A stretch of 64,000 nucleotides of DNA, taken from contig CAZDPR010000003.1 in assembly GCA_964507625.1 (NCBI GenBank), positions 15,101 to 79,100 of the forward strand. Reading direction: 5' to 3'. This DNA comes from an uncultured Candidatus Saccharibacteria bacterium (GTDB lineage Bacteria > Patescibacteriota > Minisyncoccia > Phycocordibacterales > UBA1006). This document shows, piece by piece, positions 4,873-38,180 of the stretch (its first letter is position 1; every line of letters begins with the position of its first letter). Under the pieces are notes generated by a model. It did no database searches, was not told the origin of the DNA, and was given only the letters and a program-made list of their open reading frames with translations. The position numbers and the translations under genes were made by a program.

Positions 4873-5163
4873 CTACGCCCTTTTATGAATCTCCACCTGT
4901 ACCATAACCATATCCCCTTCCCAGATATCCTGTGCCGTACGCACTGACTTTTTAATCGCAATCAAAAATGCTTGATCGCGCAAATGAGGCAACAATGACG
5001 TCTGCCAAGAGGTAGATCCAATGGTAATGGTCGCACGCAGTAATCCCTTGCCATACTGATCACGAATTGGACCAAATAATTCCCGCGGGACATAGACGAA
5101 ATACCACGGCGTATTCCCTGGCCATTTCCATACCTTTGCAGAAAAAGAAAATTCAGGTGACAT
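4873..5163 (-). CDS. DUF1905 domain protein
   Basis: VWKWPGNTPWYFVYVP...ATITIGSTSWQTSLLP...GDMVMVQV fits the DUF1905 pattern. Confidence 0.55.
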   Translation of the reverse strand: MSPEFSFSAKVWKWPGNTPWYFVYVPRELFGPIRDQYGKGLLRATITIGSTSWQTSLLPHLRDQAFLIAIKKSVRTAQDIWEGDMVMVQVEIHKRA

Positions 5164-5169
5164 AATGGG

Positions 5170-6144
5170 TTATTTTTTCTTCACTACCAATAATTGTGTC
5201 ACCAATGCCGTCATTTGATCTTTTTTCTCGGGCTTACTTTCTGCAATTAATAACGTCAGCGCGGTGAGCGTGCTCGGATTAATATTTCTATACCCCTTTA
5301 CCTGATATTTACGCAAAAACCAAATAAACGCCCATGCACCACTGCGTTTATTCCCATCAACGAACGGGTGGTTTTTCACCATAAAATATAACAAGTGTGC
5401 TGCTTTTTCTTCGGTAGTTGCATAAATTGGTTTTCCGTCGAATGACTGCATCACGTTTCCGATGATCCCCTCTACTGATCCCATTGATCGTTCTTGAGCA
5501 AAAATGTCAGTTGCTTCACCTTTTTTGATCAAGTCATTACGGAGCGTCGCAATCGAATCACGTAATTCATCTGCAGATACGGTGATTGATTTTTTGGCGG
5601 TTCCTACTGGGGTGAGTAATTCTTTGTCATATGCATCGAGTGATGCCCATGTGGTAGAAAATTCTTTTACTAATTCTAAAATACTTTTTGGATCTAATGT
5701 GGCATGTTCAGGGAGGAGGTTTTGGATTGCGGTAACGGTTTTGAGGAATTCCTGATGATTCTTTTGAATTTGCTTACGATTTATCACATAACCTTTGATA
5801 AAGTAATCTTTTAAGATCTTACTTACCCATTTACGAAATTCAATTGCTCGACCTGAATTCGTCCGATATCCAACTGCTAAAATAATATCCAAGGAGTAGA
5901 AATTAACGGGTTTATCAGAATTTGCAATGTGCATTTTTTGCACATTGCTTTTTTCACCAACTTCTTTTGATTTTAAAATATTATTAATGTGTTTAGTAAC
6001 TACTGATCGTTCTACTCCAAACACCTCGGCAATTTGTGCCTGAGTCGCCCAAATCGTTTCATGCGAAAAATCCCCACGGAACTGAATTTCTCCGGAAGAT
6101 GCTTGATATAACACTACAGAATTTTTAACGATTGGTTTTTTCAT
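5170..6144 (-). CDS. RhuM-family N-terminal domain fused to a Fic/Doc-fold domain (noncanonical motif HPFVDGNKRSG, Doc-like)
   Basis: The N-terminus is the COG3943/RhuM signature (FYSLDIILAVGYRTNSGRAIEFRKW). The C-terminal motif HPFVDGNKR is closer to the Doc kinase motif HxFxD(A/G)NKR than to the Fic motif GNGR. No in-cis S/TxxxE(G/N) inhibitory motif is present. Confidence 0.7.
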   Translation of the reverse strand: MKKPIVKNSVVLYQASSGEIQFRGDFSHETIWATQAQIAEVFGVERSVVTKHINNILKSKEVGEKSNVQKMHIANSDKPVNFYSLDIILAVGYRTNSGRAIEFRKWVSKILKDYFIKGYVINRKQIQKNHQEFLKTVTAIQNLLPEHATLDPKSILELVKEFSTTWASLDAYDKELLTPVGTAKKSITVSADELRDSIATLRNDLIKKGEATDIFAQERSMGSVEGIIGNVMQSFDGKPIYATTEEKAAHLLYFMVKNHPFVDGNKRSGAWAFIWFLRKYQVKGYRNINPSTLTALTLLIAESKPEKKDQMTALVTQLLVVKKK

Positions 6145-6186
6145 ATACTACAACCATTGAATCATATTTTGTGTTACCTGTATAGA

Positions 6187-6678
6187 TTATGTACCCAAAT
6201 AACTATCAAAATAAATCGCATGGCAGGTGTAGCCACCAGGGTTTTTTTGGAGATAGTCCTGATGATATTCTTCGGCTTTGTAAAATTTTGTAAACGGTTC
6301 CAGTGTTGTCACTACTGGGTGTGACCAGCGTTTTGAATCATTGACGATTTTGATAAAATCTTCTGCTTGTTTTTTCTCGTCATCGTTTTGATAAAAAATG
6401 GCACTGCGATACGATGTCCCGATATCGTTCCCCTGTTGATTCAAGGTGGTTGGGTTATGAATCTGGAAGAAAAAATCGAGTAATTTCCAAAATGATGTTT
6501 GTGTATCGTCATACGCGATATCGAGCGCCTCCGCGTGTCCAGGGTGGTTTTCATAAGTTGGATTATCATTATCACCACCGGTATACCCTGCAACAATATC
6601 CACAACCCCTGGCTGGGTGCGCATGAGCTCTTCCAATCCCCAAAAACATCCCCCTGCAAAATATGCGTGTTTGATCAT
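6187..6678 (-). CDS. msrA: Peptide methionine sulfoxide reductase MsrA
   Basis: GGCFWG active-site motif; start taken at MIKHAYFAGGCFWG. Confidence 0.85.
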   Translation of the reverse strand: MIKHAYFAGGCFWGLEELMRTQPGVVDIVAGYTGGDNDNPTYENHPGHAEALDIAYDDTQTSFWKLLDFFFQIHNPTTLNQQGNDIGTSYRSAIFYQNDDEKKQAEDFIKIVNDSKRWSHPVVTTLEPFTKFYKAEEYHQDYLQKNPGGYTCHAIYFDSYLGT

Positions 6679-6718
6679 ATTGATCAGTGTAGCACAAACT
6701 ATTCTGATACAAAAAACC

Positions 6719-6928
6719 CTATTGTAAATCAATAGGGCAAGTATTTTTTCCGATAATCTGATACCACAAACACCAACTCATTACTGCTTGGAAAAAGCAA
6801 AAAAGTGCACCAATAATCAAAACTACTTGTACCCAAGCTACGGTTGCAACAAACAACGCAAGTGCTAATAAAATAACCCCCAGTACTGCGCGCATAATGC
6901 GGTCAGCGGTTCCAATGTTTTTCTTCAT
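6719..6928 (-). CDS. DUF2892 (YgaP-C-like) small membrane protein
   Basis: MKKNIGTADRIMRAVLGVILLALALF followed by two TM helices. Confidence 0.55.
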   Translation of the reverse strand: MKKNIGTADRIMRAVLGVILLALALFVATVAWVQVVLIIGALFCFFQAVMSWCLWYQIIGKNTCPIDLQ

Positions 6929-7020
6929 ACCCCTACAGTGTACCCGATTTTGCACAGGATGAATACTTTTTTGAATTATTGACAAAATAGTTAAAAATAT
7001 ATAGAGTAAAGAAAAAAACT

Positions 7021-7350
7021 ATGGATCAAGAAAAGATAGATACACTCGTGTATAATGTTGCTCATTGGTTCTTTCTAAGAATCAAGGAGCAAAACATTGC
7101 AAAAACAATTCCTGGAGAAGATCTCGAAAGTTTCGAAAAAACTCTTATGTTGCATTTTCAAAATGAACTGATAAAAAGGAATGGTAGGCTCGCAATTCAA
7201 GAAGCTGATCGATTAATACTACAAATAATAATGGGAGCTGCGGAAATACACAATATTCCTAAAAAAATAATTCCCAAAGGTTTTTATTTTCTCATTAGAG
7301 TTGAGTATATGGATGTACACAATAAAAATATTTGCATATTAAGACTCTAA
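7021..7350 (+). CDS. Hypothetical protein (109 aa)
   Basis: ORF followed by candidate hairpins at 7354-7376 and 7386-7406. Confidence 0.35.
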   Translation: MDQEKIDTLVYNVAHWFFLRIKEQNIAKTIPGEDLESFEKTLMLHFQNELIKRNGRLAIQEADRLILQIIMGAAEIHNIPKKIIPKGFYFLIRVEYMDVHNKNICILRL

Positions 7351-7392
7351 TCCAAAAAGCTCGTAAGGGCTTTTTTATATACAAAAACACAC

Positions 7393-7863
7393 CTATTCGG
7401 TGTGTGTATCTTTTACGATACAAGCAATGTATCCTGTTTTTGGAATATCTTTACTACTCGTATGTAAAAATTTATGAAATGATAGTGTCATATCAGAATA
7501 TCTACTGAACCCAACAATAGAAGAACTTGCTTCCCTGTTCATAAAATCGTGATTCAAGATAAACACACGTGCAGTAAAAATTTTTTCATGCTGTTTGGTA
7601 TATTGAATTAATTGACTAGTCTGATTTTCATCAAGATATTCAATAGTTTTCTTTTGGTGTTGTATCCAATTTTGGAATCGTTCAAGAATTTTATGAAATG
7701 ATAACACTTTTTCATCTCTCTTGATTCGATTGAATTTATAGATATGTATGAGGTTGCCATCTATTTGATAACATTGGGACAGTTCCAAAATATTTTTTTC
7801 TATTTCCGTGTTTTGCTGATTTTCTAGTATTGAGTAGTTCGTTTTCATTTTTTTTTGGTTCAC
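7393..7863 (-). CDS. Hypothetical protein (156 aa)
   Basis: ORF only. Confidence 0.4.
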   Translation of the reverse strand: MNQKKMKTNYSILENQQNTEIEKNILELSQCYQIDGNLIHIYKFNRIKRDEKVLSFHKILERFQNWIQHQKKTIEYLDENQTSQLIQYTKQHEKIFTARVFILNHDFMNREASSSIVGFSRYSDMTLSFHKFLHTSSKDIPKTGYIACIVKDTHTE

Positions 7864-7897
7864 TGCTTTATATCACAAAAATATTAAAAAGTAAAAC

Positions 7898-8290
7898 CTA
7901 CCAGTTCATGATCGTAATTGTCACCTGGAGAACCGTTGCAAACAATACCCAGCCAAGGTACGGAATATTCACGAGTGTCACCCACCGCGCGTGAGGATAA
8001 ATTGCAATCATTGCCCAAATGAGTGTTCCAAGTACCAAAAATATATCAATCATCGCCAGAACATTATTCTGTAACCCAAACTGGATCGGTGTGAACAGTG
8101 CATTAAAAATGATATTAAGGATAAATGGGAGCGCTACGATAAAAGGAATTTGTCGCATAACGAGCAAATATCCTACATATCCAAAAGAAACAGCAATAAT
8201 TGCATAGAGTACGGACCATACGGGACCAAAAAGCCACCCCGGCGGTGCCCATGTTGGTTTTATTAAGGTTTGATACCACATTGATTGCAT
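7898..8290 (-). CDS. tspO: TspO/MBR tryptophan-rich sensory protein
   Basis: WYQTLIKPTWAPPGWLFGPVWSVLY plus 5 TM helices. Confidence 0.8.
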   Translation of the reverse strand: MQSMWYQTLIKPTWAPPGWLFGPVWSVLYAIIAVSFGYVGYLLVMRQIPFIVALPFILNIIFNALFTPIQFGLQNNVLAMIDIFLVLGTLIWAMIAIYPHARWVTLVNIPYLGWVLFATVLQVTITIMNW

Positions 8291-8296
8291 AGATGA

Positions 8297-8617
8297 TTAT
8301 TGAGGGAAAACGTCATCGATTCCCCCACCATTGGTGAGATTCGTAAATCCTGCTTGTGTTAATAATTGTTGTGCTGCCCCGGATCGCGCACCAGAACGGC
8401 AATACAGACAGATTGACGCGTCTTTGGGAACATCAGGCAATTGTCCTGCCATGATATTTTCTAGTGGGAAATTTATTGCATCAGGATGATGTCGTTCAGC
8501 AAATTCTGCCGGAGTTCGTACGTCGATATAGATCATATACATCAAGTATACCACAAATACATAAAAAGGCCCGAGCATTGCTGCACGGACCATAAACGTA
8601 AAGCCGTCCGAAAACAC
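8297..8617 (-). CDS. Rhodanese-domain (sulfurtransferase) protein with N-terminal TM anchor
   Basis: Active-site loop CRSGARS; DVRTPAEFAERHHPDAINFP. Confidence 0.75.
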   Translation of the reverse strand: MFSDGFTFMVRAAMLGPFYVFVVYLMYMIYIDVRTPAEFAERHHPDAINFPLENIMAGQLPDVPKDASICLYCRSGARSGAAQQLLTQAGFTNLTNGGGIDDVFPQ

Positions 8618-10708: not shown

Positions 10709-12427
10709 TTAGGGATTTTTGAAAAAATCAGGATCATTATTCTGTATCCAATCTAATACTGTTCGCATGGTTCGCGACGCCCCTGTTTCGTTCGTTGATG
10801 GTGCAGTATCCATCATAACTACAAATGCATAGGTTGGATTTTCTGCTGGAAAAAATCCGGTAGTCCATGAATTCATAAATTGATTCCCTCGCCCAACCTG
10901 TGCAGTTCCTGTTTTTGCAGCTACTGACACATACGGAACATTTAATACCTGTGCCGTTCCTCTGGTTACAGTTTCGCGCATAGCGTTTCTGATAATTTGG
11001 TAATTTTTTTCATCAATTCCTGTTACATAGCTAATTTGATTTTCTTGAATTCCCTCTTGATCTAATTGTATGTGAGGAGTGATTAATTTCCCGCTCGTTG
11101 CAATACCACCCACGGCACGTAATAGTTGAAGCATAGATACCTGAAAACCAAACTGCCCAATTGCCGAGTTATAGGTATCTCCCTGTCGCCAGGCACCATC
11201 TTGAAAAGTCTTTAATTTCCATTCTGGCGATGGAATAATTCCCTGTTTATCATTTTCAAGTTCAAACCCGGTCGGCGAACCAAGCCCAAATCGCACCAAA
11301 TAATCATTAATACGAGAAATACCTAATGCTTGTTGATTCCCCAAACCTCCTCCAATCGCATAAAAAAAGGTGTTTACTGATTCGGCAATAGCCGTGTAGA
11401 CATTCGTCGGTCCATGCCCTTCGCGTTTCCAGTCTCGGAATACTTGTGGATTTTCTGGATCCCACCGGTTTGGAATTTCTACTCTCCCTGAACTGAAAAT
11501 AGTCGTTTGCGGGGTGATAACCCCTTCCTGAAGTGCTGCGAGTGCGATGTAAGGTTTTACAGTAGAACCAGGGGTATATAATCCGGAAATAGCTCGATTT
11601 AAATATACCTTGCGAGAATCGTTTGCATACCCACGAATCGTTGCTGTATCTTTTCCTTCAGCGAGGACATTAGCATCGAATTCTGGATAACTGGTCATCG
11701 CAATTAATTCACCTGTTTGCACATTCATGATTAATCCAGCCCCTCCTTGAAACTTACTGGATTCTGCTAAATCTTTAATGGCGTTATATAACGCTGATTG
11801 AATTCCTGAATGAATAGTAGTTGAAAGATTCTTCCCTGGTTCTGAAGGAATCATCATATTTTCTGCAGTAATATTACCGAGCGCATCAACCTCTACTACT
11901 TTACTCCCATTATTCCCTGAAAGATATTCTGAAAATACTTTTTCAATACCTACTTTCCCTTCAATATTTTGTCGCCAGAAAAACCCCGCTTTATCACGAG
12001 TCGGATATCCCACATACCCTAATAGATGACCATACCCACCGCCTTCTTTGTAAGCACGATGGAGAAATGGTTCCCCGTTTGGCGCAGGAATATTCCAAGC
12101 TAATGGGATACCATTACGGTCAAAAACTACCCCACGTTCTGCAAAAATGGGAATTTTTTGTAATCGATTATTTTCTGATAGTGCAAAAAATTTTGCACCC
12201 TGAACAATTTGTACCTGATAGAGCCGAGCAATAAAGGTTATAAACACAACAACAACAACACCAATAAAAATTGACACGGCGCGTTTACTAATTGACTGTT
12301 CGATTACACCTTCGAATTGTTGAGTATTAAATCCAGGCCTATTTTGTGCATCGAGCAACACTTGATCAGGATCAATAAAAGAGTGGGTAATTTTTTTAGG
12401 TCGACGCCCAAAAAGTCTCAATATCAT
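10709..12427 (-). CDS. mrdA: Class B penicillin-binding protein (PBP2/MrdA-like transpeptidase)
   Basis: Contains STVKP (SxxK) and KTGTAQ motifs, with an N-terminal TM anchor. Confidence 0.8.
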   Translation of the reverse strand: MILRLFGRRPKKITHSFIDPDQVLLDAQNRPGFNTQQFEGVIEQSISKRAVSIFIGVVVVVFITFIARLYQVQIVQGAKFFALSENNRLQKIPIFAERGVVFDRNGIPLAWNIPAPNGEPFLHRAYKEGGGYGHLLGYVGYPTRDKAGFFWRQNIEGKVGIEKVFSEYLSGNNGSKVVEVDALGNITAENMMIPSEPGKNLSTTIHSGIQSALYNAIKDLAESSKFQGGAGLIMNVQTGELIAMTSYPEFDANVLAEGKDTATIRGYANDSRKVYLNRAISGLYTPGSTVKPYIALAALQEGVITPQTTIFSSGRVEIPNRWDPENPQVFRDWKREGHGPTNVYTAIAESVNTFFYAIGGGLGNQQALGISRINDYLVRFGLGSPTGFELENDKQGIIPSPEWKLKTFQDGAWRQGDTYNSAIGQFGFQVSMLQLLRAVGGIATSGKLITPHIQLDQEGIQENQISYVTGIDEKNYQIIRNAMRETVTRGTAQVLNVPYVSVAAKTGTAQVGRGNQFMNSWTTGFFPAENPTYAFVVMMDTAPSTNETGASRTMRTVLDWIQNNDPDFFKNP

Positions 12428-19648: not shown

Positions 19649-22102
19649 ATGAAACTATTAATTGTCGAATCCCCAAGTAAAGCAAAAACTATTGAAAAAT
19701 ACTTGGACGGAAAATACACCGTCCGTGCATCAATCGGACATGTGCGTGATTTACCAAAAACCAATCGTGATGCAATTGATATCCCTGGTGGATTTATTCC
19801 CCGTTATGAAATTTCTGCGGGTAAAGGAAAAGTTATTTCTGAATTACAATCTCTTGCCAAACGCGCTGACGAAGTCATTCTTTCTCCTGATCCCGACCGT
19901 GAAGGTGAAGCTATTGCGTGGCATTTACAGGAACTCCTCCATGATGCAAAAATTACCGCACCGATTAAACGGGTTACCTTTAACGAAATCACTAAAGACG
20001 CGGTTATCGAGGCACTCAATCACCCTCGCGATGTTGATCGTAAATTAGTAGCAGCACAGGAAGCCCGTCGAGTACTGGATCGATTGGTGGGATATGATTT
20101 ATCAGGACTCATCTGGAAAAAGGTACGCTATGGGTTATCAGCAGGACGCGTACAATCCCCTGCGCTCCGTATTATTATGGAACGTGAACGGGAAATTCGC
20201 GCATTCGTCCCAGAAACATATTGGACAATCCAAGGTAATTTTTCTGCAGGAAAAGAAACATTCCCATTAACTTGTACCGAAGAACCTCGTGATATCAATG
20301 AAGTCAAAAGAATACTCGACCTTACCAAAAAACAACCTTGGTCAATTACTGATATCAAAACCAGTGAACAAAAAAGATCTCCTCGCGCACCGTTTACCAC
20401 ATCAACATTACAACAAACCGCTTCCACTCGATTAGGACTTTCTCCTTCACGTACGATGCAATTAGCGCAAAAATTATACGAAGCCGGACACATTACCTAT
20501 ATGCGTACGGATAGTACAAACCTAAGTAAACAAGCCCAAGGGCAGATTCTCCATTTTGTAGAAAAAGAACTCGGGAAAGAATTTGTACAACCACGCACCT
20601 ATGCAACAAAATCAAAAAACGCACAAGAAGCCCACGAAGCAATTCGTCCATCATCAATAGCTAAAAAAATAGCCGGAGCAAACCCAGCAGAACAATCGCT
20701 ATATAAAATAATTTGGGAACGTACGGTTGCATCACAAATGGCAGACGCGACACTATTGAAAACAAAACTGGTAGCAAACATTGATACAAAAAACATTCCC
20801 GATTTTACTGCAAACGGATCCAGAATTATTTTCCCTGGATGGTTAACGGTTGATACGGGTGCCCGTGGTGAAGACGTAGAGTTGCCAAAATTATCCGTCG
20901 GACAAACTATTCAATTAATTGATATTACCGAAACAGAAAAAGCAACCCAACCACCTAATCGATATAGTGAAGCAGGACTCATCAAAGAATTAGAAGAACG
21001 AGGTATCGGCCGACCATCTACCTATGCATCTATTATGCGAACGTTGGAAGATCGTGAATATGTACGCAAGGAAGGCAGGACCCTGTTCCCAACCGATACT
21101 GGGGATGTTGTTTCTAGTTTCTTGGAACATAATTTCCCAACCTATATTAGTGATACATTCACCGCAGAAATGGAAAATGAACTGGATGATATCGCAAATG
21201 GTAAACGAGACTATACCAAAACCCTTGCTGATTTTTATACCCCATTTTCTGCAGAAGTTGCAGAAAAAGATAAACTTGCGAAAGCAACTCACCTGGGTGA
21301 TGCGGAATCACATCTTATTTGTCCAAAATGTGGTGCATCTATGATGATTAAACTGGGTCGCACCGGTAAATTCCTATCATGTACTCGATACCCACAGTGT
21401 GATGGAGCACTGACTATGGACGGTACCGAAATTGGAAAAGAAAAACCATTAGGATATCACCCAAAAACCAACGATCCAATTTATGTATTATCAGGACGAT
21501 TTGGTGCATATGTACAACAAGGTGACGCACCAGAGGTTCCAAAACTCACTAAATTCCCCAAGGGTCATAAAAAAACTGACGCCGACAAAGAATTAATAAA
21601 ACAAGAAAAAGAATCCATAGCGCAAGCAAAATTACTCCCGCAACCGCGCCGTGCATCATTACCTGCACGAATGAAACCTGCTGATGTAACACTCGACATT
21701 GCACTCAAATTATTGGAACTCCCACGGGAATTAGGAAACGACCCAACGACCGGAGAACCTATCATTGCCAATATTGGGAAATTTGGTCCCTACGTAGGAC
21801 GAGGACGAGAATTCAGATCACTCAAAAAAGGATTTGATCCGTATACCATAACACTCGACGAAGCAATTACAATTATTAATACTCCAAAACAATTACCTAA
21901 AGGAACAGAACTAGTAACGACATTCATTCATCCAAAAAGTAAGAAGGAAATGCAGGTATTAAAATCAAAATCAGGAACATTTATCAAATCAGGATTAAAA
22001 CGAATCTATCTACCTGATAATTTTGATATCACAAATGCAACTGCAGATGAGTTCGCCGCGTTGTTAAGCACTGAAACAGTAAAGAAAAAAGGTGGAAAAT
22101 AA
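19649..22102 (+). CDS. topA: DNA topoisomerase I
   Basis: MKLLIVESPSKAKTIEKYL Toprim N-terminus; catalytic Tyr region; C-terminal zinc ribbon CPKCG...CTRYPQC. Confidence 0.9.
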   Translation: MKLLIVESPSKAKTIEKYLDGKYTVRASIGHVRDLPKTNRDAIDIPGGFIPRYEISAGKGKVISELQSLAKRADEVILSPDPDREGEAIAWHLQELLHDAKITAPIKRVTFNEITKDAVIEALNHPRDVDRKLVAAQEARRVLDRLVGYDLSGLIWKKVRYGLSAGRVQSPALRIIMEREREIRAFVPETYWTIQGNFSAGKETFPLTCTEEPRDINEVKRILDLTKKQPWSITDIKTSEQKRSPRAPFTTSTLQQTASTRLGLSPSRTMQLAQKLYEAGHITYMRTDSTNLSKQAQGQILHFVEKELGKEFVQPRTYATKSKNAQEAHEAIRPSSIAKKIAGANPAEQSLYKIIWERTVASQMADATLLKTKLVANIDTKNIPDFTANGSRIIFPGWLTVDTGARGEDVELPKLSVGQTIQLIDITETEKATQPPNRYSEAGLIKELEERGIGRPSTYASIMRTLEDREYVRKEGRTLFPTDTGDVVSSFLEHNFPTYISDTFTAEMENELDDIANGKRDYTKTLADFYTPFSAEVAEKDKLAKATHLGDAESHLICPKCGASMMIKLGRTGKFLSCTRYPQCDGALTMDGTEIGKEKPLGYHPKTNDPIYVLSGRFGAYVQQGDAPEVPKLTKFPKGHKKTDADKELIKQEKESIAQAKLLPQPRRASLPARMKPADVTLDIALKLLELPRELGNDPTTGEPIIANIGKFGPYVGRGREFRSLKKGFDPYTITLDEAITIINTPKQLPKGTELVTTFIHPKSKKEMQVLKSKSGTFIKSGLKRIYLPDNFDITNATADEFAALLSTETVKKKGGK

Positions 22103-35639: not shown

Positions 35640-35727
35640 AATTATATTTTTTATTATCTAATAATATATTTTCAGTATACCATATTTTCTCAAACAAAAA
35701 ACTACCCTTTGGGATAGTTTTTTGTGT

Positions 35728-35803
35728 GGTGCGTGATCCAGGATTCGAACCTGGGGCCTTTCGAGTATCAGTCGAATGCTCTAGCCAGCTGAGCTAATCA
35801 CGC
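35728..35803 (-). tRNA. trnI: tRNA-Ile (anticodon GAU), CCA encoded
   Basis: GCGTGAT acceptor stem; anticodon loop CTGATAC; T-arm CCAGG-TTCGAAT-CCTGG; ends ACCA. Confidence 0.9.
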
Positions 35804-35901
35804 GTTTCAATGCTCCACGAAAAACAGTATACTGATTTTTCGATATTTTGCAAACAAAAAAATTATAATTCTGTATTAGTTTTTTATTTAGTAATCAATA
35901 C

Positions 35902-35929
35902 TTGACAATATTTCAAAATATGCTATAAT
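35902..35929 (+). promoter_or_regulatory. Consensus sigma70 promoter TTGACA-16-TATAAT for the lipoprotein gene
   Basis: -35 at 35902-35907 and -10 at 35924-35929; ATG at 35947. Confidence 0.6.
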
Positions 35930-35946
35930 TAATAAAATTTGGACAT

Positions 35947-36648
35947 ATGAAAAAAAATATTTTTGCCGCAATGATGGGATTGGCAACCCTTTTAATGATT
36001 TCCTGTTCCACGAAAGATGTCATAAATGACATTGACCCAATGGAAACAGAGGGTCTCCAAGTACGGACTCAAATCATAGACTCGTTGAGGAATTTGCCTC
36101 CTGAAGAGCGCGGAAGATTCATGGAACAAAACGCTCCACAACTGAATTCCATGTTAGCCTCTTACCTGAGACAACGGGGATACAGCTGCGAAATCGAAAC
36201 TGTCGGATACTCTTTCGGATCTGGTAAGGCCAAAGGTGTGGAGTCAGGAGACAGTACTCGACACAATGGTCACTACAACGATCAGCTCTACGCGATCATC
36301 AAAGGTGGTAGCTGCTTCGGAGATTCGTTGATTGTGTTTGTCCAGTGTCTCAATGGCACATTCTCCTTAAAGGGGGACGGACAATCACTTGGTACTTATG
36401 TGCCAGAGTTTACGATTGATTCGTTGATGGGGATAAATCGATATGTTGATTATATGATGTCAATTTATTTGGCTGAATATTTTAACATTCCGATTTATAA
36501 AGGGAGAAAAATGAACGAAAAGTTCAGAATTACCCCTGCGGAGGCTCGATTATTAGAAGATTCTATTGGAAATACTCAAGTCACCGTAAAGGTGTATCCT
36601 GGAGATCACTTCCATCTAGGCAGAATGACCTATACCAGGTCGTTCTAA
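35947..36648 (+). CDS. Lipoprotein of unknown function (lipobox LMISC), GC-rich gene
   Basis: Signal peptide MKKNIFAAMMGLATLLMISCS. Local GC is about 48% against a window background near 33%. Confidence 0.5.
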   Translation: MKKNIFAAMMGLATLLMISCSTKDVINDIDPMETEGLQVRTQIIDSLRNLPPEERGRFMEQNAPQLNSMLASYLRQRGYSCEIETVGYSFGSGKAKGVESGDSTRHNGHYNDQLYAIIKGGSCFGDSLIVFVQCLNGTFSLKGDGQSLGTYVPEFTIDSLMGINRYVDYMMSIYLAEYFNIPIYKGRKMNEKFRITPAEARLLEDSIGNTQVTVKVYPGDHFHLGRMTYTRSF

Positions 36649-36663
36649 ATTCGCGAAACTCAA

Positions 36664-36693
36664 ATAGCACGTCTTTATGGCGTGCTATTTTTA
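36664..36693 (+). terminator. Rho-independent terminator (ATAGCACG/CGTGCTAT + T run)
   Basis: 8-bp stem. Confidence 0.65.
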
Positions 36694-36707
36694 CTTCTTA
36701 AATTCTT

Positions 36708-36735
36708 ACAAAAAAGCCACCCATTACAGGTGGCT
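36708..36735 (-). terminator. Rho-independent terminator for the lysozyme gene (AGCCACC/GGTGGCT)
   Basis: 7-bp GC-rich stem with a T run on the minus strand. Confidence 0.65.
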
Positions 36736-36753
36736 TTACAGTTTTTGGAAAAC

Positions 36754-37485
36754 TTATTTTAAGACAAGTCTTGGAAGGTCTCGCCTTTTAATATCGTTTC
36801 CATCGACTGTATTTGCATTTATGCCCGGCATGCGGACATATTCTGCAAATTGATGAATCGCAGCAGCTGCTAGGATAGGGTCGTCCCTACGCGCAGATGA
36901 ATATGCTGCAATCCAAACAGGGTATTCAGTAAAATCATCTTTTAGATGATCGCGGTAATACGCGTATCCTGAATAGATGATGGGCTTTACCCCGTACTCT
37001 TTTTCAACGGCATCGAGCCATTTTTTAAGCCCCACTTTGAGCTTTGCCATGCTTTGCACACGACTTTTTTGCTCAATATCCAGAATCGGAACAAAGTCCC
37101 CTTTCTGGATTTTCCCCCTAATTGCTCGCAGATAATTATCTGCTTGTTTCAGGGAATTTTCGTTGGGATCGTAATAGTGGTACGCACCCACTATGAGACC
37201 CTGTTCACGAGCCTCGGACAAATTTTTTTCAAAATTTTTATCTTTACGATCTGCCCCCATTGTAGAGCGCATGATAGCAAACTCTACTGGGGCATGCTGG
37301 TCCTGTGTTGCCACAGTTTTCCAGCAGACATCCCCCTGATAATGGGAGATATCGATGCCGAACACGGTTTCATTCTGAACAGTTTCGTATCCAGCCTGTC
37401 CGTTATCTAAACAAGCAAAAACAAGTATCGAGAAGAAAAACGAAAGTGCAATTATTTTGATCGCAGAAAAAAAAGAATTTTTCAT
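36754..37485 (-). CDS. Glycoside hydrolase family 25 lysozyme (secreted)
   Basis: GIDISHYQG and EFAIMRSTMG GH25 motifs; N-terminal signal peptide; GC-rich. Confidence 0.8.
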   Translation of the reverse strand: MKNSFFSAIKIIALSFFFSILVFACLDNGQAGYETVQNETVFGIDISHYQGDVCWKTVATQDQHAPVEFAIMRSTMGADRKDKNFEKNLSEAREQGLIVGAYHYYDPNENSLKQADNYLRAIRGKIQKGDFVPILDIEQKSRVQSMAKLKVGLKKWLDAVEKEYGVKPIIYSGYAYYRDHLKDDFTEYPVWIAAYSSARRDDPILAAAAIHQFAEYVRMPGINANTVDGNDIKRRDLPRLVLK

Positions 37486-37574
37486 TTGTTAAGTTTTTTT
37501 TATTATAGCATAATTTATAATATTATCAATTTTGTATAGTGATAATAAAAAACCGCGTTCAGCAGTTTTTTTAT

Positions 37575-37928
37575 TTACGCAATTTTGGTAACTTTGAATT
37601 TCATGTAAGGTTGTCGGTGTCCTCGTTTTTTGTAGTAACGAGATTTAGCTTTGTATTTTACTACGATAACTTTGTCACCTTTTCCTTCTTCGATAAATTC
37701 AGCGGTAACTTTTGCACCTGCAACAGTTGGAGTTCCAATGGTTGTTTTTGATCCATCAGTCGTCATTAGTACTTGATCAAATGCAAGGGATTTTCCAGCT
37801 TCGAATTCCCCATCTAATTTTTCAATAGTAATAATATCTCCTTCACGAACGATGTATTGTTTTCCACCTGTAAGGATTACAGAAAAAGCAGGAGAAAGTT
37901 CTTTAGTTGTTTTCTTGGTAGTAGCCAT
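37575..37928 (-). CDS. rplU: Ribosomal protein bL21
   Basis: ILTGGKQYIVREGD...FDQVLM...KGDKVIVVKYKAKSRYYKKRGHRQPY. Confidence 0.85.
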   Translation of the reverse strand: MATTKKTTKELSPAFSVILTGGKQYIVREGDIITIEKLDGEFEAGKSLAFDQVLMTTDGSKTTIGTPTVAGAKVTAEFIEEGKGDKVIVVKYKAKSRYYKKRGHRQPYMKFKVTKIA

Positions 37929-37997: not shown

Positions 37998-38180
37998 TTA
38001 CGTGGTAAATCCGGCTTTTTTCTTTGACTTTTCCGCAATAGTTTTTGCGACCTCCTCAATAAATGAGGCTGTCTTTGCGGTCAAAGAAAAGGTGAGCCAC
38101 AGGGCTCCGAAAAAAGTTACTCTCATGAATTTCCCAAACAATCCTTCTTTTGCCTGGTTATTATTTCTTACTTGTGACAT
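37998..38180 (-). CDS. Candidate small membrane protein (60 aa)
   Basis: ORF with one TM helix; a hairpin AGCCG/CGGCT overlaps its 3' end. Competes with the + ORF 37852..38208. Confidence 0.2.
   Translation of the reverse strand: MSQVRNNNQAKEGLFGKFMRVTFFGALWLTFSLTAKTASFIEEVAKTIAEKSKKKAGFTT

Follow-up and report, generated by a model that had tools for sequence, protein, structure and literature searches.

In the 64-kb stretch of DNA analyzed here (contig CAZDPR010000003.1; this whole stretch is hereafter called the window), two convergent genes lie between the genes for tRNA-Ile (anticodon GAT) and ribosomal protein L21 (rplU) of a bacterium that belongs to the Patescibacteria, or candidate phyla radiation (CPR). 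One gene encodes a lipoprotein of an uncharacterized family, which we call LIPO, and the other encodes a muramidase of glycoside hydrolase family 25 (GH25). Each gene carries its own near-consensus promoter and its own terminator (Table 1). A preliminary description of this locus had already reported the tRNA, the 233-aa lipoprotein with its LMISC lipobox, the lysozyme with its GIDISHYQG motif, the convergent gene orientation, the TTGACA-16-TATAAT promoter, and the separate terminators, and all of these features were recovered in our annotation. Nested reading frames aside, the segment holds only two open reading frames (ORFs) of at least 60 aa, and neither encodes a recombinase. A peptidoglycan-synthesis-related cluster composed of mraZ, rsmH, and a gene for a penicillin-binding protein (PBP) is located directly upstream of the locus.

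Table 1. Annotated features of the tRNA-Ile/rplU locus, in window coordinates.
Feature	Position	Strand	Basis and remarks
tRNA-Ile (anticodon GAT)	35727..35803	-	ARAGORN; left flank of insertion site, 5' end towards insert
tRNA-Ile promoter-like site TTGCAA-16-TATACT	35826..35853	-	Promoter scan; native, kept in every relative, intact after insertion
Left junction, A-rich copy AACAAAAAA	35853..35861	.	Junction alignments; homology to empty sites stops here
LIPO gene promoter TTGACA, 16 nt, TG-TATAAT	35902..35929	+	Promoter scan; consensus match 12/12
LIPO, lipoprotein of uncharacterized family, 233 aa, lipobox Cys20	35947..36648	+	ORF
LIPO gene intrinsic terminator	36662..36690	+	Terminator scan; fold free energy (dG) -17.8 kcal/mol, z about -5.9
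GH25 gene intrinsic terminator, hairpin GCCACC/GGTGGC then U-run	36713..36737	-	Terminator scan; minus-strand fold z -3.2
GH25 (Chalaropsis-type) muramidase, 243 aa, lipobox LVFAC Cys25	36754..37485	-	Pfam PF01183, E 4e-41
GH25 gene promoter TTGATA, 16 nt, TG-TATAAT	37502..37529	-	Promoter scan; consensus match 11/12
Right junction, A-rich copy AATAAAAAA	37544..37552	.	Junction alignment; homology to empty sites restarts here
rplU terminator hairpin, native	37547..37572	-	Fold dG -9.8, z -3.15; same position as empty-site hairpin
rplU (ribosomal protein L21), right flank	37575..37928	-	Pfam Ribosomal_L21p E 1e-33; TIGR00061

Relatives were sampled by a scan with the neighboring CysS protein, keeping one genome per species, and the window proteins and tRNAs were mapped onto the resulting loci. 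In four of these relatives (L022, L010, L012, and L040, whose CysS proteins are 85%, 76%, 76%, and 81% identical to that of the window, respectively), tRNA-Ile and rplU are separated by a spacer of 80-150 bp with no gene between them. The direct juxtaposition of rplU and tRNA-Ile that the preliminary description had proposed looking for is therefore present in four genomes. The order membrane protein, tRNA-Ile(GAT), rplU, and cysS is common to L022, L010, and L012, and the genes for PBP, rsmH, mraZ, and dnaJ are likewise collinear with the window wherever the contigs of relatives reach. The L040 contig is 3.9 kb long and covers tRNA-Ile, rplU, and cysS only. A fifth relative, the Joint Genome Institute (JGI) metagenome contig L001 (CysS identity of 81%), holds both genes at identical junctions, with protein identities of 89% and 83%. 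Thus, two of the six related loci (the window and L001) are filled, and the remaining four are empty. Because four relatives with the same flanking order have an empty spacer and L001 is filled in an identical manner, the locus is best read as an insertion by horizontal gain. The earlier proposal of a horizontally acquired insert is consequently upheld, both by these empty sites and by the composition of synonymous sites described below.

The boundaries of the insert are evident from alignments of filled and empty sites. Empty sites are arranged as the tRNA, the tRNA promoter block, the rplU terminator hairpin, and the rplU stop codon. The promoter block, GTATACxGATTTT...TTTTGCAAAyAAAAAAC, is kept in both filled and empty sites. 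In the window and in L001, homology to the empty sites is lost after the A-run (~35862) and is regained at GATAATAAAAAAC (~37544). This delimits an insert of ~1.68 kb (~35862-37543) that is positioned between the tRNA-Ile promoter and the rplU terminator, that includes both promoters and both terminators of its two genes, and that disrupts no neighboring gene. A 9-nt A-rich repeat (AAyAAAAAA) is found at both ends of the insert, and a single copy (AAyAAAAAAC) is found in empty sites. This repeat might be a target-site duplication or a microhomology used in recombination, although either assignment is uncertain for a sequence of such low complexity. The preliminary description had noted neither an integrase nor direct repeats. 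Its first statement holds, since no integrase or recombinase is encoded on the insert according to the ORF list and Pfam searches, but the second must be amended to include the 9-nt flanking repeat, low in complexity as it is.

We considered two kinds of mobile-element signature at the junctions and rejected both. The preliminary description had pointed to the adjacent tRNA. The insert begins 59 nt past the 5' end of tRNA-Ile, which is the promoter side of the tRNA, and no tRNA-derived direct repeat was found at the far end of the insert. Insertion on the 5' side, without an integrase and without a tRNA repeat, does not agree with integrase-type targeting of a tRNA 3' end. A 39-nt inverted repeat was also evaluated as a pair of transposon-like ends. 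Its arms are set back from the junctions by 40 and 14 nt and correspond exactly to the -35 and -10 elements of the two promoters, and therefore this candidate was discarded.

A separate and smaller insertion was observed in L001 at positions 8236-8300, where ~50 nt have been inserted exactly at the 5' end of tRNA-Ile with a 9-bp duplication, TAATCACGC. Within the inserted sequence are the perfect palindromes CTCAGATCTGAG and CCTGCCTGCCGGCAGGCAGG. Unrelated CPR loci have the same 20-nt GC-rich palindrome in intergenic DNA (L047, 20966-20985; L069, 15432-15451, with a T-run after it), and it may represent a small mobile hairpin or a terminator element.

The composition of the insert is distinctive chiefly at synonymous sites. 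The preliminary description gave a GC content of 45-48% for the insert and 33% for the window, which was an overstatement: the computed values are 42.0% for positions 35947-37485 and 36.1% for the whole window. A housekeeping stretch at 19891-21429 has a GC content of 42.4%, which is on par with the insert. The tetranucleotide distance of the insert is also unremarkable (z of 1.4, rank 60 of 624), and we dropped this profile as evidence because it does not single out the insert. In contrast, the GC content at third codon positions (GC3) is 0.449 for the LIPO gene and 0.398 for the GH25 gene, compared to a median of 0.26 for genes of at least 150 aa, and the two genes rank first and sixth, respectively, among 49 genes by codon-usage deviation. 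The L001 copies of both genes likewise have an excess of GC3 (0.47 and 0.46). Of the compositional measures compared, then, codon usage and GC3 are deviant, whereas overall GC is modestly raised and ties with that of a housekeeping stretch, and the tetranucleotide check yields no outlier. The foreign composition resides at synonymous sites and is clearer there than in overall GC. Taken on its own, composition is no more than suggestive of acquisition. Elsewhere in the window, a block at 4873-8617 with GC3 values of 0.34-0.46 carries accessory genes (DUF1905, a RhuM/Fic-domain protein, MsrA, TspO, and rhodanese) and may be another acquired region.

The direction of the event can be read from more distant relatives. 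A gene for a CorA-like membrane protein (~300 aa) is located between rplU and cysS in L010 (8776-9756), L012 (9078-9980), and L040 (1897-2799). This gene is absent from the window, L001, and L022, where a small ORF of 60-73 aa is found instead (37998-38180 in the window). Gene content varies on both sides of rplU. Furthermore, L010 and L012 are more distant than the window, L001, and L022 are from one another on the basis of MraZ, CysS, and DnaJ, and the same is true of L040 on the basis of CysS and L21. Because of the common CorA-like gene and the greater distances between housekeeping proteins, we treat L010, L012, and L040 as outgroups. All three have empty sites, and this pattern polarizes the event as a gain within the group formed by the window, L001, and L022.

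It is improbable that both genes are instead ancestral at this site, with vertical inheritance in the window and L001 and losses in the relatives whose spacers are empty. The distances among the window, L001, and L022 are nearly equal (identities of 87-89% for MraZ, 80-85% for CysS, and 85-88% for DnaJ), which does allow for one loss in L022. In addition, synonymous divergence (dS; Nei-Gojobori) between the window and L001 is comparable for the insert (0.58 for the LIPO gene and 1.01 for the GH25 gene) and for the flanks (0.79 for mraZ, 0.98 for rplU, 1.05 for cysS, and ~1.6 for PBP and rsmH). However, the site is empty in the three outgroups as well, and a compact spacer of the same design, with the promoter followed by the terminator, is present in all of them. 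At least two to four precise deletions would be required to generate this distribution, and such a history does not fit with the foreign GC3 of both carriers or with their deviant codon usage. Because the dS values of the insert are similar to those of its flanks, the insert dates back roughly to the divergence of the window and L001 lineages and is not a recent arrival. A recent transfer of the insert between these two lineages is accordingly unsupported.

The immediate surroundings of the insert do not share a single history. At tRNA-Ile, the window and L022 have identical sequences, and so do L001 and L012. For L21, the window protein is 87% identical to that of L001 and 65% identical to that of L022. 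The L21 proteins of the window and L001 are both 117 aa long, and those of the empty-site relatives are 130-155 aa long with a longer Lys/Ala-rich N-terminal extension. Because the tRNA allele pairs the window with L022, whereas rplU and the insert pair it with L001, the ancestry of the site is mosaic, which points to homologous exchange around it.

The preliminary description also remarked on the absence of rpmA (L27), the usual partner of rplU, in connection with the insert. Neither the 64-kb window nor the 21-kb loci of its close relatives contain an L27 gene, and thus the absence itself is confirmed. In more distant CPR loci, the L27 gene is several kilobases from that for L21 and not adjacent to it. 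Because the empty-site relatives also have no rpmA beside rplU, this absence is a clade-wide trait that is unconnected with the insert.

The GH25 protein retains the conserved acidic residues of its family. Its match to PF01183 scores 141.7 bits against a cutoff of 27 and spans profile positions 1-180 of 180, corresponding to a full-length domain. The ORF contains the sequence FGIDISHYQG, and residues D45, D136, and E138 are invariant among 19 homologs. In the structures 2wag and 4kru, an identical Asp is aligned with D45, and the counterparts of D136-x-E138 are DVE (2wag) and DIE (4kru). The active site is therefore predicted to be intact, and the protein is a putative N-acetylmuramidase. The earlier designation of this enzyme as secreted was imprecise because the protein has a lipobox of its own, which predicts membrane anchoring. 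Among the 40 closest homologs, 22 also fit a PROSITE-type lipobox pattern. Because GH25 bears a lipobox just as LIPO does, both products of the insert are predicted to be membrane-anchored and extracytoplasmic.

Two GH25 loci in other CPR contexts are worth recording here. At L102 (3828-6587), the GH25 gene is followed by a gene for a 254-aa lipoprotein (...FTFISC) with a C-terminal transmembrane segment, and a gene encoding LysM and peptidase M23 domains is located upstream. At L091 (6001-7442), the GH25 gene is followed by that for a lipoprotein of yet another family (...SFESC) that starts with MKTAKTFVFVAIIIALTSFESC.

Searches with the GH25 protein recovered >600 relatives, of which the best matches after the L001 copy are 50-60% identical. 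To gain a view of the donor, we used the 40 best matches (47-83% identity to the window protein) and placed taxonomically only those that carry an organism name. These named matches come from Nomurabacteria, Paceibacteria, and Patescibacteria/Gracilibacteria and are 49-53% identical. The closest matches after L001 (54-60%) lie outside the named set; six contigs that carry such matches were fetched and hold bacterial housekeeping genes at 34-41% GC. Proteins from Flavobacteriaceae are next at 45-47% identity and have a different N-terminal architecture. Because the nearest organism-named GH25 proteins are from Patescibacteria and those of Flavobacteriaceae are more distant, the most likely donor, judged by protein similarity, would be another patescibacterial lineage with a higher GC content.

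The preliminary description had favored a donor from a different phylum, such as the lineage of a presumed host, and this is not what the homolog search indicates, since named Patescibacteria (49-53%) precede Flavobacteriaceae (45-47%). In favor of a cassette derived from another phylum, for example from a Bacteroidota host, are the elevated GC content of the insert relative to its recipient and the fact that the first relatives outside the CPR are the flavobacterial GH25 proteins. We nonetheless consider such an origin a poor prospect. Every organism-named protein among the 40 best matches is patescibacterial (the closest matches, at 54-60%, being outside that naming), the flavobacterial homologs differ in N-terminal architecture, and the sampled LIPO genes are all on contigs of 35-45% GC with bacterial housekeeping genes (contigs that were left unplaced as to phylum).

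An origin from a prophage lysis cassette, of which the insert would be a remnant composed of an endolysin gene and an accessory gene, is more doubtful still and seems highly improbable. The GH25 domain does match endolysin families in PHROG (phrog_291, E 8e-39), but these matches reflect only the common catalytic domain. No other phage genes, holin, or integrase are present, and the flanks are tRNA-Ile and rplU. Both proteins have lipoprotein signal peptides, and the genes are equipped with separate promoters and terminators. Searches of PHROG, 50,697 phage records, and IMG/VR gave no match to LIPO. Moreover, the fetched contigs with the closest GH25 homologs have no annotated genes for phage structure or lysis, and the homologs are surrounded there by bacterial housekeeping genes, such as those for ClpB, the CCA-adding enzyme, a sigma factor, and ribosomal protein S15.

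The LIPO protein begins with MKKNIFAAMMGLATLLMISC, in agreement with a lipobox (LMISC), and 33 of 69 members of its family fit the lipobox pattern. It has no match in Pfam (E <= 0.01), NCBIfam, or PHROG, and the PADLOC defense models likewise gave none. A word-indexed search returned only nine LIPO proteins, and an exhaustive profile search returned 163 cluster representatives among 1.84e9, including 115 with E <= 1e-10. We conclude from these searches that LIPO represents a genuine, rare, and unannotated protein family. In the mature protein, C81, C123, C134, a GSGKA string, and the motifs CFxDS, NGTF, and PGDxF are invariant among the closer members, and only G108, C134, N136, A200, V216, and D220 are invariant across 29 members.

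A confident structural model of LIPO was computed with AlphaFold2 from 14 sequences (predicted local distance difference test [pLDDT] of 88.9, predicted TM-score [pTM] of 0.78). In the predicted fold, a helical hairpin (residues 37-76) precedes a domain formed mostly by long beta hairpins. When the model was compared with the PDB using Foldseek, no match was obtained at E <= 0.001 (best E of 0.47), and the listed fold matches have TM-scores of no more than 0.24 on either normalization and no more than 0.18 when normalized by the query. Comparison with viral structure models using Foldseek gave nothing significant, and a profile search of PDB sequences was empty. The GSGKA string led us to evaluate LIPO as a possible member of the MliC/PliC family, whose motifs are SxSGAxY and YxxxTKG (PMC6033465). 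This candidate was rejected because both motifs are absent, there is no Pfam match to MliC, and the model has no match to an eight-stranded barrel.

LIPO sequences were also sought in mobile elements. No match was found in the phage records, plasmids, or IMG/VR, and a search using a 15-sequence LIPO alignment yielded four metagenome loci and no viral loci. In other genomes, LIPO genes are present on contigs of 35-45% GC (with several at 40-45%), are surrounded by housekeeping genes, and have GC3 values typical of their own contigs.

Three contexts place LIPO genes beside a gene for tRNA-Ile. The tRNA of the window and L001 is tRNA-Ile(GAT), which is divergent from the LIPO gene. In L004 (tRNA at 10817-10891) and L093 (5879-5953), tRNA-Ile(TAT) lies 90-160 bp downstream of the LIPO gene, and in L006 (2104-2178) and L094 (2184-2258), a gene for a membrane protein of ~210 aa separates LIPO from tRNA-Ile(TAT). 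A tRNA-Ile with a UAU anticodon is uncommon in bacteria. In addition, a second lipoprotein gene encoding ~310-320 aa is positioned directly upstream of the LIPO gene in L004 (8929-9891), L093 (3898-4860), and L095 (652-1578). These upstream lipoproteins carry the sequences MKRIVCIFTLLLCL(V/I)SC... and MKTFLLLICSIFLAC...

Several lines of evidence link LIPO to GH25. In L089/L090, the genes are arranged as a XerC-like gene, GH25 in the forward orientation, LIPO in the reverse orientation, and a response regulator, so that the pair is convergent as in the window; the LIPO assignment in this case has an hhalign probability of 100% (E 7e-68). In L097/L098, the LIPO gene follows the GH25 gene in tandem. 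Together with the window and L001, these loci provide at least two independent contexts and three arrangements in which the two genes are adjacent. Because the two gene families adjoin in at least two unrelated genomic settings, we infer that GH25 and LIPO may form a functional pair.

The promoters are the second line of evidence. Those of the LIPO and GH25 genes, TTGACAATATTTCAAAATATGCTATAAT and TTGATAATATTATAAATTATGCTATAAT, are nearly the same sequence in opposite orientations: from -35 to -10 they agree at 24 of 28 positions, and the similarity continues over the 39-nt inverted repeat (82% identity; 35902-35940 and 37491-37529). The shared 28-mer pattern (<=3 mismatches) occurs at no other site in the window. 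By hand count, the two promoters within the window, and likewise those within L001, resemble each other at least as much as they resemble their counterparts in the other genome. That the promoters are near-identical in the window and similar in L001 suggests common regulation of the two genes. Two other comparisons were not informative in this respect: identities between lineages are all about equal for the four GH25/LIPO pairs, and therefore co-phylogeny provides no information, and isoelectric points of the pairs reveal no consistent acid/base complementarity. The suggestion in the preliminary description that the lipoprotein is a partner of the lysozyme thus gains support from recurrent adjacency and near-identical promoters, but the association is not obligatory.

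Overall, we propose that the locus holds an acquired cassette of ~1.68 kb composed of GH25 and LIPO genes, that it was inserted in the spacer between tRNA-Ile and rplU, and that its products function as a pair, and we assign this reading a probability of roughly 0.7. A number of observations weigh against it. The GC content of the insert is just 6 points over that of the window, and its tetranucleotide profile is no outlier. The insert dS of 0.6-1.0, like that of the flanks, indicates no recent transfer, yet GC3 is still high, which is unexplained. An ancestral gain in the window/L001/L022 group followed by a single clean loss in L022 is possible, as is the alternative to such a loss, a single gain in the common ancestor of the window and L001. 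With regard to the pairing, L089, L097, and L105 have some neighbors in common (S15/NYN/XerC, or Exo_endo_phos) and may be rearrangements of one ancestral neighborhood, which would leave two contexts rather than three. About six LIPO loci have no GH25 gene in reach (L004/L093, L006/L094, L008, L095, and L096), and four GH25 loci have no LIPO gene (L091, L099-101, L102-104, and L105). The 222-aa neighbor in L008 has no similarity to GH25, the 216-aa neighbor in L006 is not related to it, and Pfam matched neither protein. Finally, a membrane-anchored muramidase could equally be an autolysin that acts on the cell's own wall.

The last of these points bear on an explanation in which the two genes arrived in one transfer without having related functions, with GH25 serving as an ordinary autolysin for the cell's own wall and LIPO having a separate role. 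Most LIPO loci are without an adjacent GH25 gene and several GH25 loci are without LIPO, and a membrane anchor places the enzyme beside the peptidoglycan of its producer. We regard this explanation as unlikely, however, because adjacency recurs with different arrangements and flanks, because the promoters are near-identical here and similar in L001, and because the 3' neighbor of GH25 in two of the four loci that lack LIPO (L102 and L091) is a lipoprotein of a different family. Both an autolysin with its regulator and the mere co-transfer of unrelated genes are possible.

According to the reading that we prefer, a self-contained accessory cassette would have been acquired by horizontal transfer in a patescibacterial genome, probably of the class Paceibacteria, where it entered the short spacer that separates the rplU terminator from the tRNA-Ile promoter. 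With no integrase on the insert, this probably occurred by illegitimate or microhomology-mediated recombination at the A-run, and the cassette was possibly exchanged later between sister lineages through homologous recombination in the conserved flanks. Two anchored extracytoplasmic proteins would then be expressed from near-identical strong promoters that face each other. GH25 is expected to cut the bond between N-acetylmuramic acid and N-acetylglucosamine (MurNAc-GlcNAc) of peptidoglycan and might thereby open or digest surface peptidoglycan, either in the wall of a host or neighbor or as fragments for scavenging. The producer makes peptidoglycan itself, since the mraZ-rsmH-PBP cluster is directly upstream. 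LIPO would be the cognate partner, most likely one that restrains or directs GH25 to protect the wall of the producer. Since the cassette is accessory, being carried by two of the six related loci, a role at the wall of a neighbor or host, or in scavenging, is preferred to one as a core autolysin. The insertion with its boundaries and composition, the assignment to GH25 with its catalytic residues, the lipoboxes, the similar promoters, and the recurring adjacency are direct observations. We infer the donor, the insertion mechanism, the enzyme target, and any physical or regulatory link between GH25 and LIPO.

We also entertain, as a tentative and rather speculative extension, the idea that LIPO represents an unrecognized class of GH25-specific partner (an inhibitor or immunity protein, or a surface regulator) with a fold unlike those of solved structures, and that the two-gene module is mobile among episymbiotic Patescibacteria. 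If this were true, solitary LIPO genes would be orphan immunity genes against the muramidases of neighbors.

Members of the CPR depend on other cells, and how they breach the wall of a neighbor, or feed on it, without destroying their own is largely obscure. At this locus, the gain of genes by a streamlined CPR genome is clean and its direction is established, since relatives still have the empty site. The locus also connects an enzyme that cuts peptidoglycan with a lipoprotein family that lacks annotation and whose predicted fold is unmatched among solved structures. We are aware of no protein that has been described as an inhibitor of GH25 enzymes. If LIPO controls or neutralizes the muramidase, it would, to our knowledge, be the first protein partner or inhibitor for GH25 enzymes, and the two genes would be a concrete pair to pursue in cultivated episymbionts. 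If it does not, the locus would be an ordinary small accessory islet. The islet itself is an ordinary kind of event, and its modest novelty is the GH25-LIPO module.

Among known systems, the insert is similar to tRNA-associated genomic islands in its presence/absence polymorphism at a fixed site beside a tRNA, its deviant GC3, and its accessory cargo. It differs from them by the lack of an integrase and of a tRNA 3'-end repeat, by its position on the 5' side of the tRNA, by its size of 1.7 kb, and by having a 9-nt A-run as its sole flanking repeat. The enzyme has the full-length GH25 domain of Streptomyces cellosyl (1JFX), a putative lysozyme (2WAG), an autolytic lysozyme (4KRU), and Cpl-1-type endolysins, and it keeps the D-x-S-x-[YW]-Q and D-x-E motifs of the solved GH25 enzymes (alignment E values of 1e-17 to 1e-7). 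It differs in being a single-domain protein with a lipoprotein signal peptide, in having none of the cell-wall-binding repeats that are typical of endolysins and autolysins, and in being encoded by an accessory gene.

The Tge/Tgi systems associated with type VI secretion systems (T6SS) are muramidase-immunity pairs. Among pairs of a hydrolase and a lipoprotein inhibitor or immunity protein, which include MliC/PliC/SliC for c-type lysozyme (PMC6033465) as well as T6SS Tge/Tgi, LIPO differs in having no sequence or fold similarity to the known inhibitors and no secretion system nearby. It resembles them in that a muramidase gene lies beside the gene for a small extracytoplasmic lipoprotein, in its recurrent adjacency, and in the existence of orphan copies elsewhere. 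In a cultivated case of CPR episymbiosis, the saccharibacterium Ca. Southlakia epibionticum carries homologs of a lysozyme and a peptidase downstream of virB4 that are reported to be essential for epibiotic growth (work cited in PMC12102498). The window locus holds no gene for a type IV secretion system (T4SS), and the likeness is one of hydrolase role rather than enzyme family. On those terms, both cases may comprise a cell-wall hydrolase that an episymbiotic member of the CPR could plausibly use at the interface with its host.

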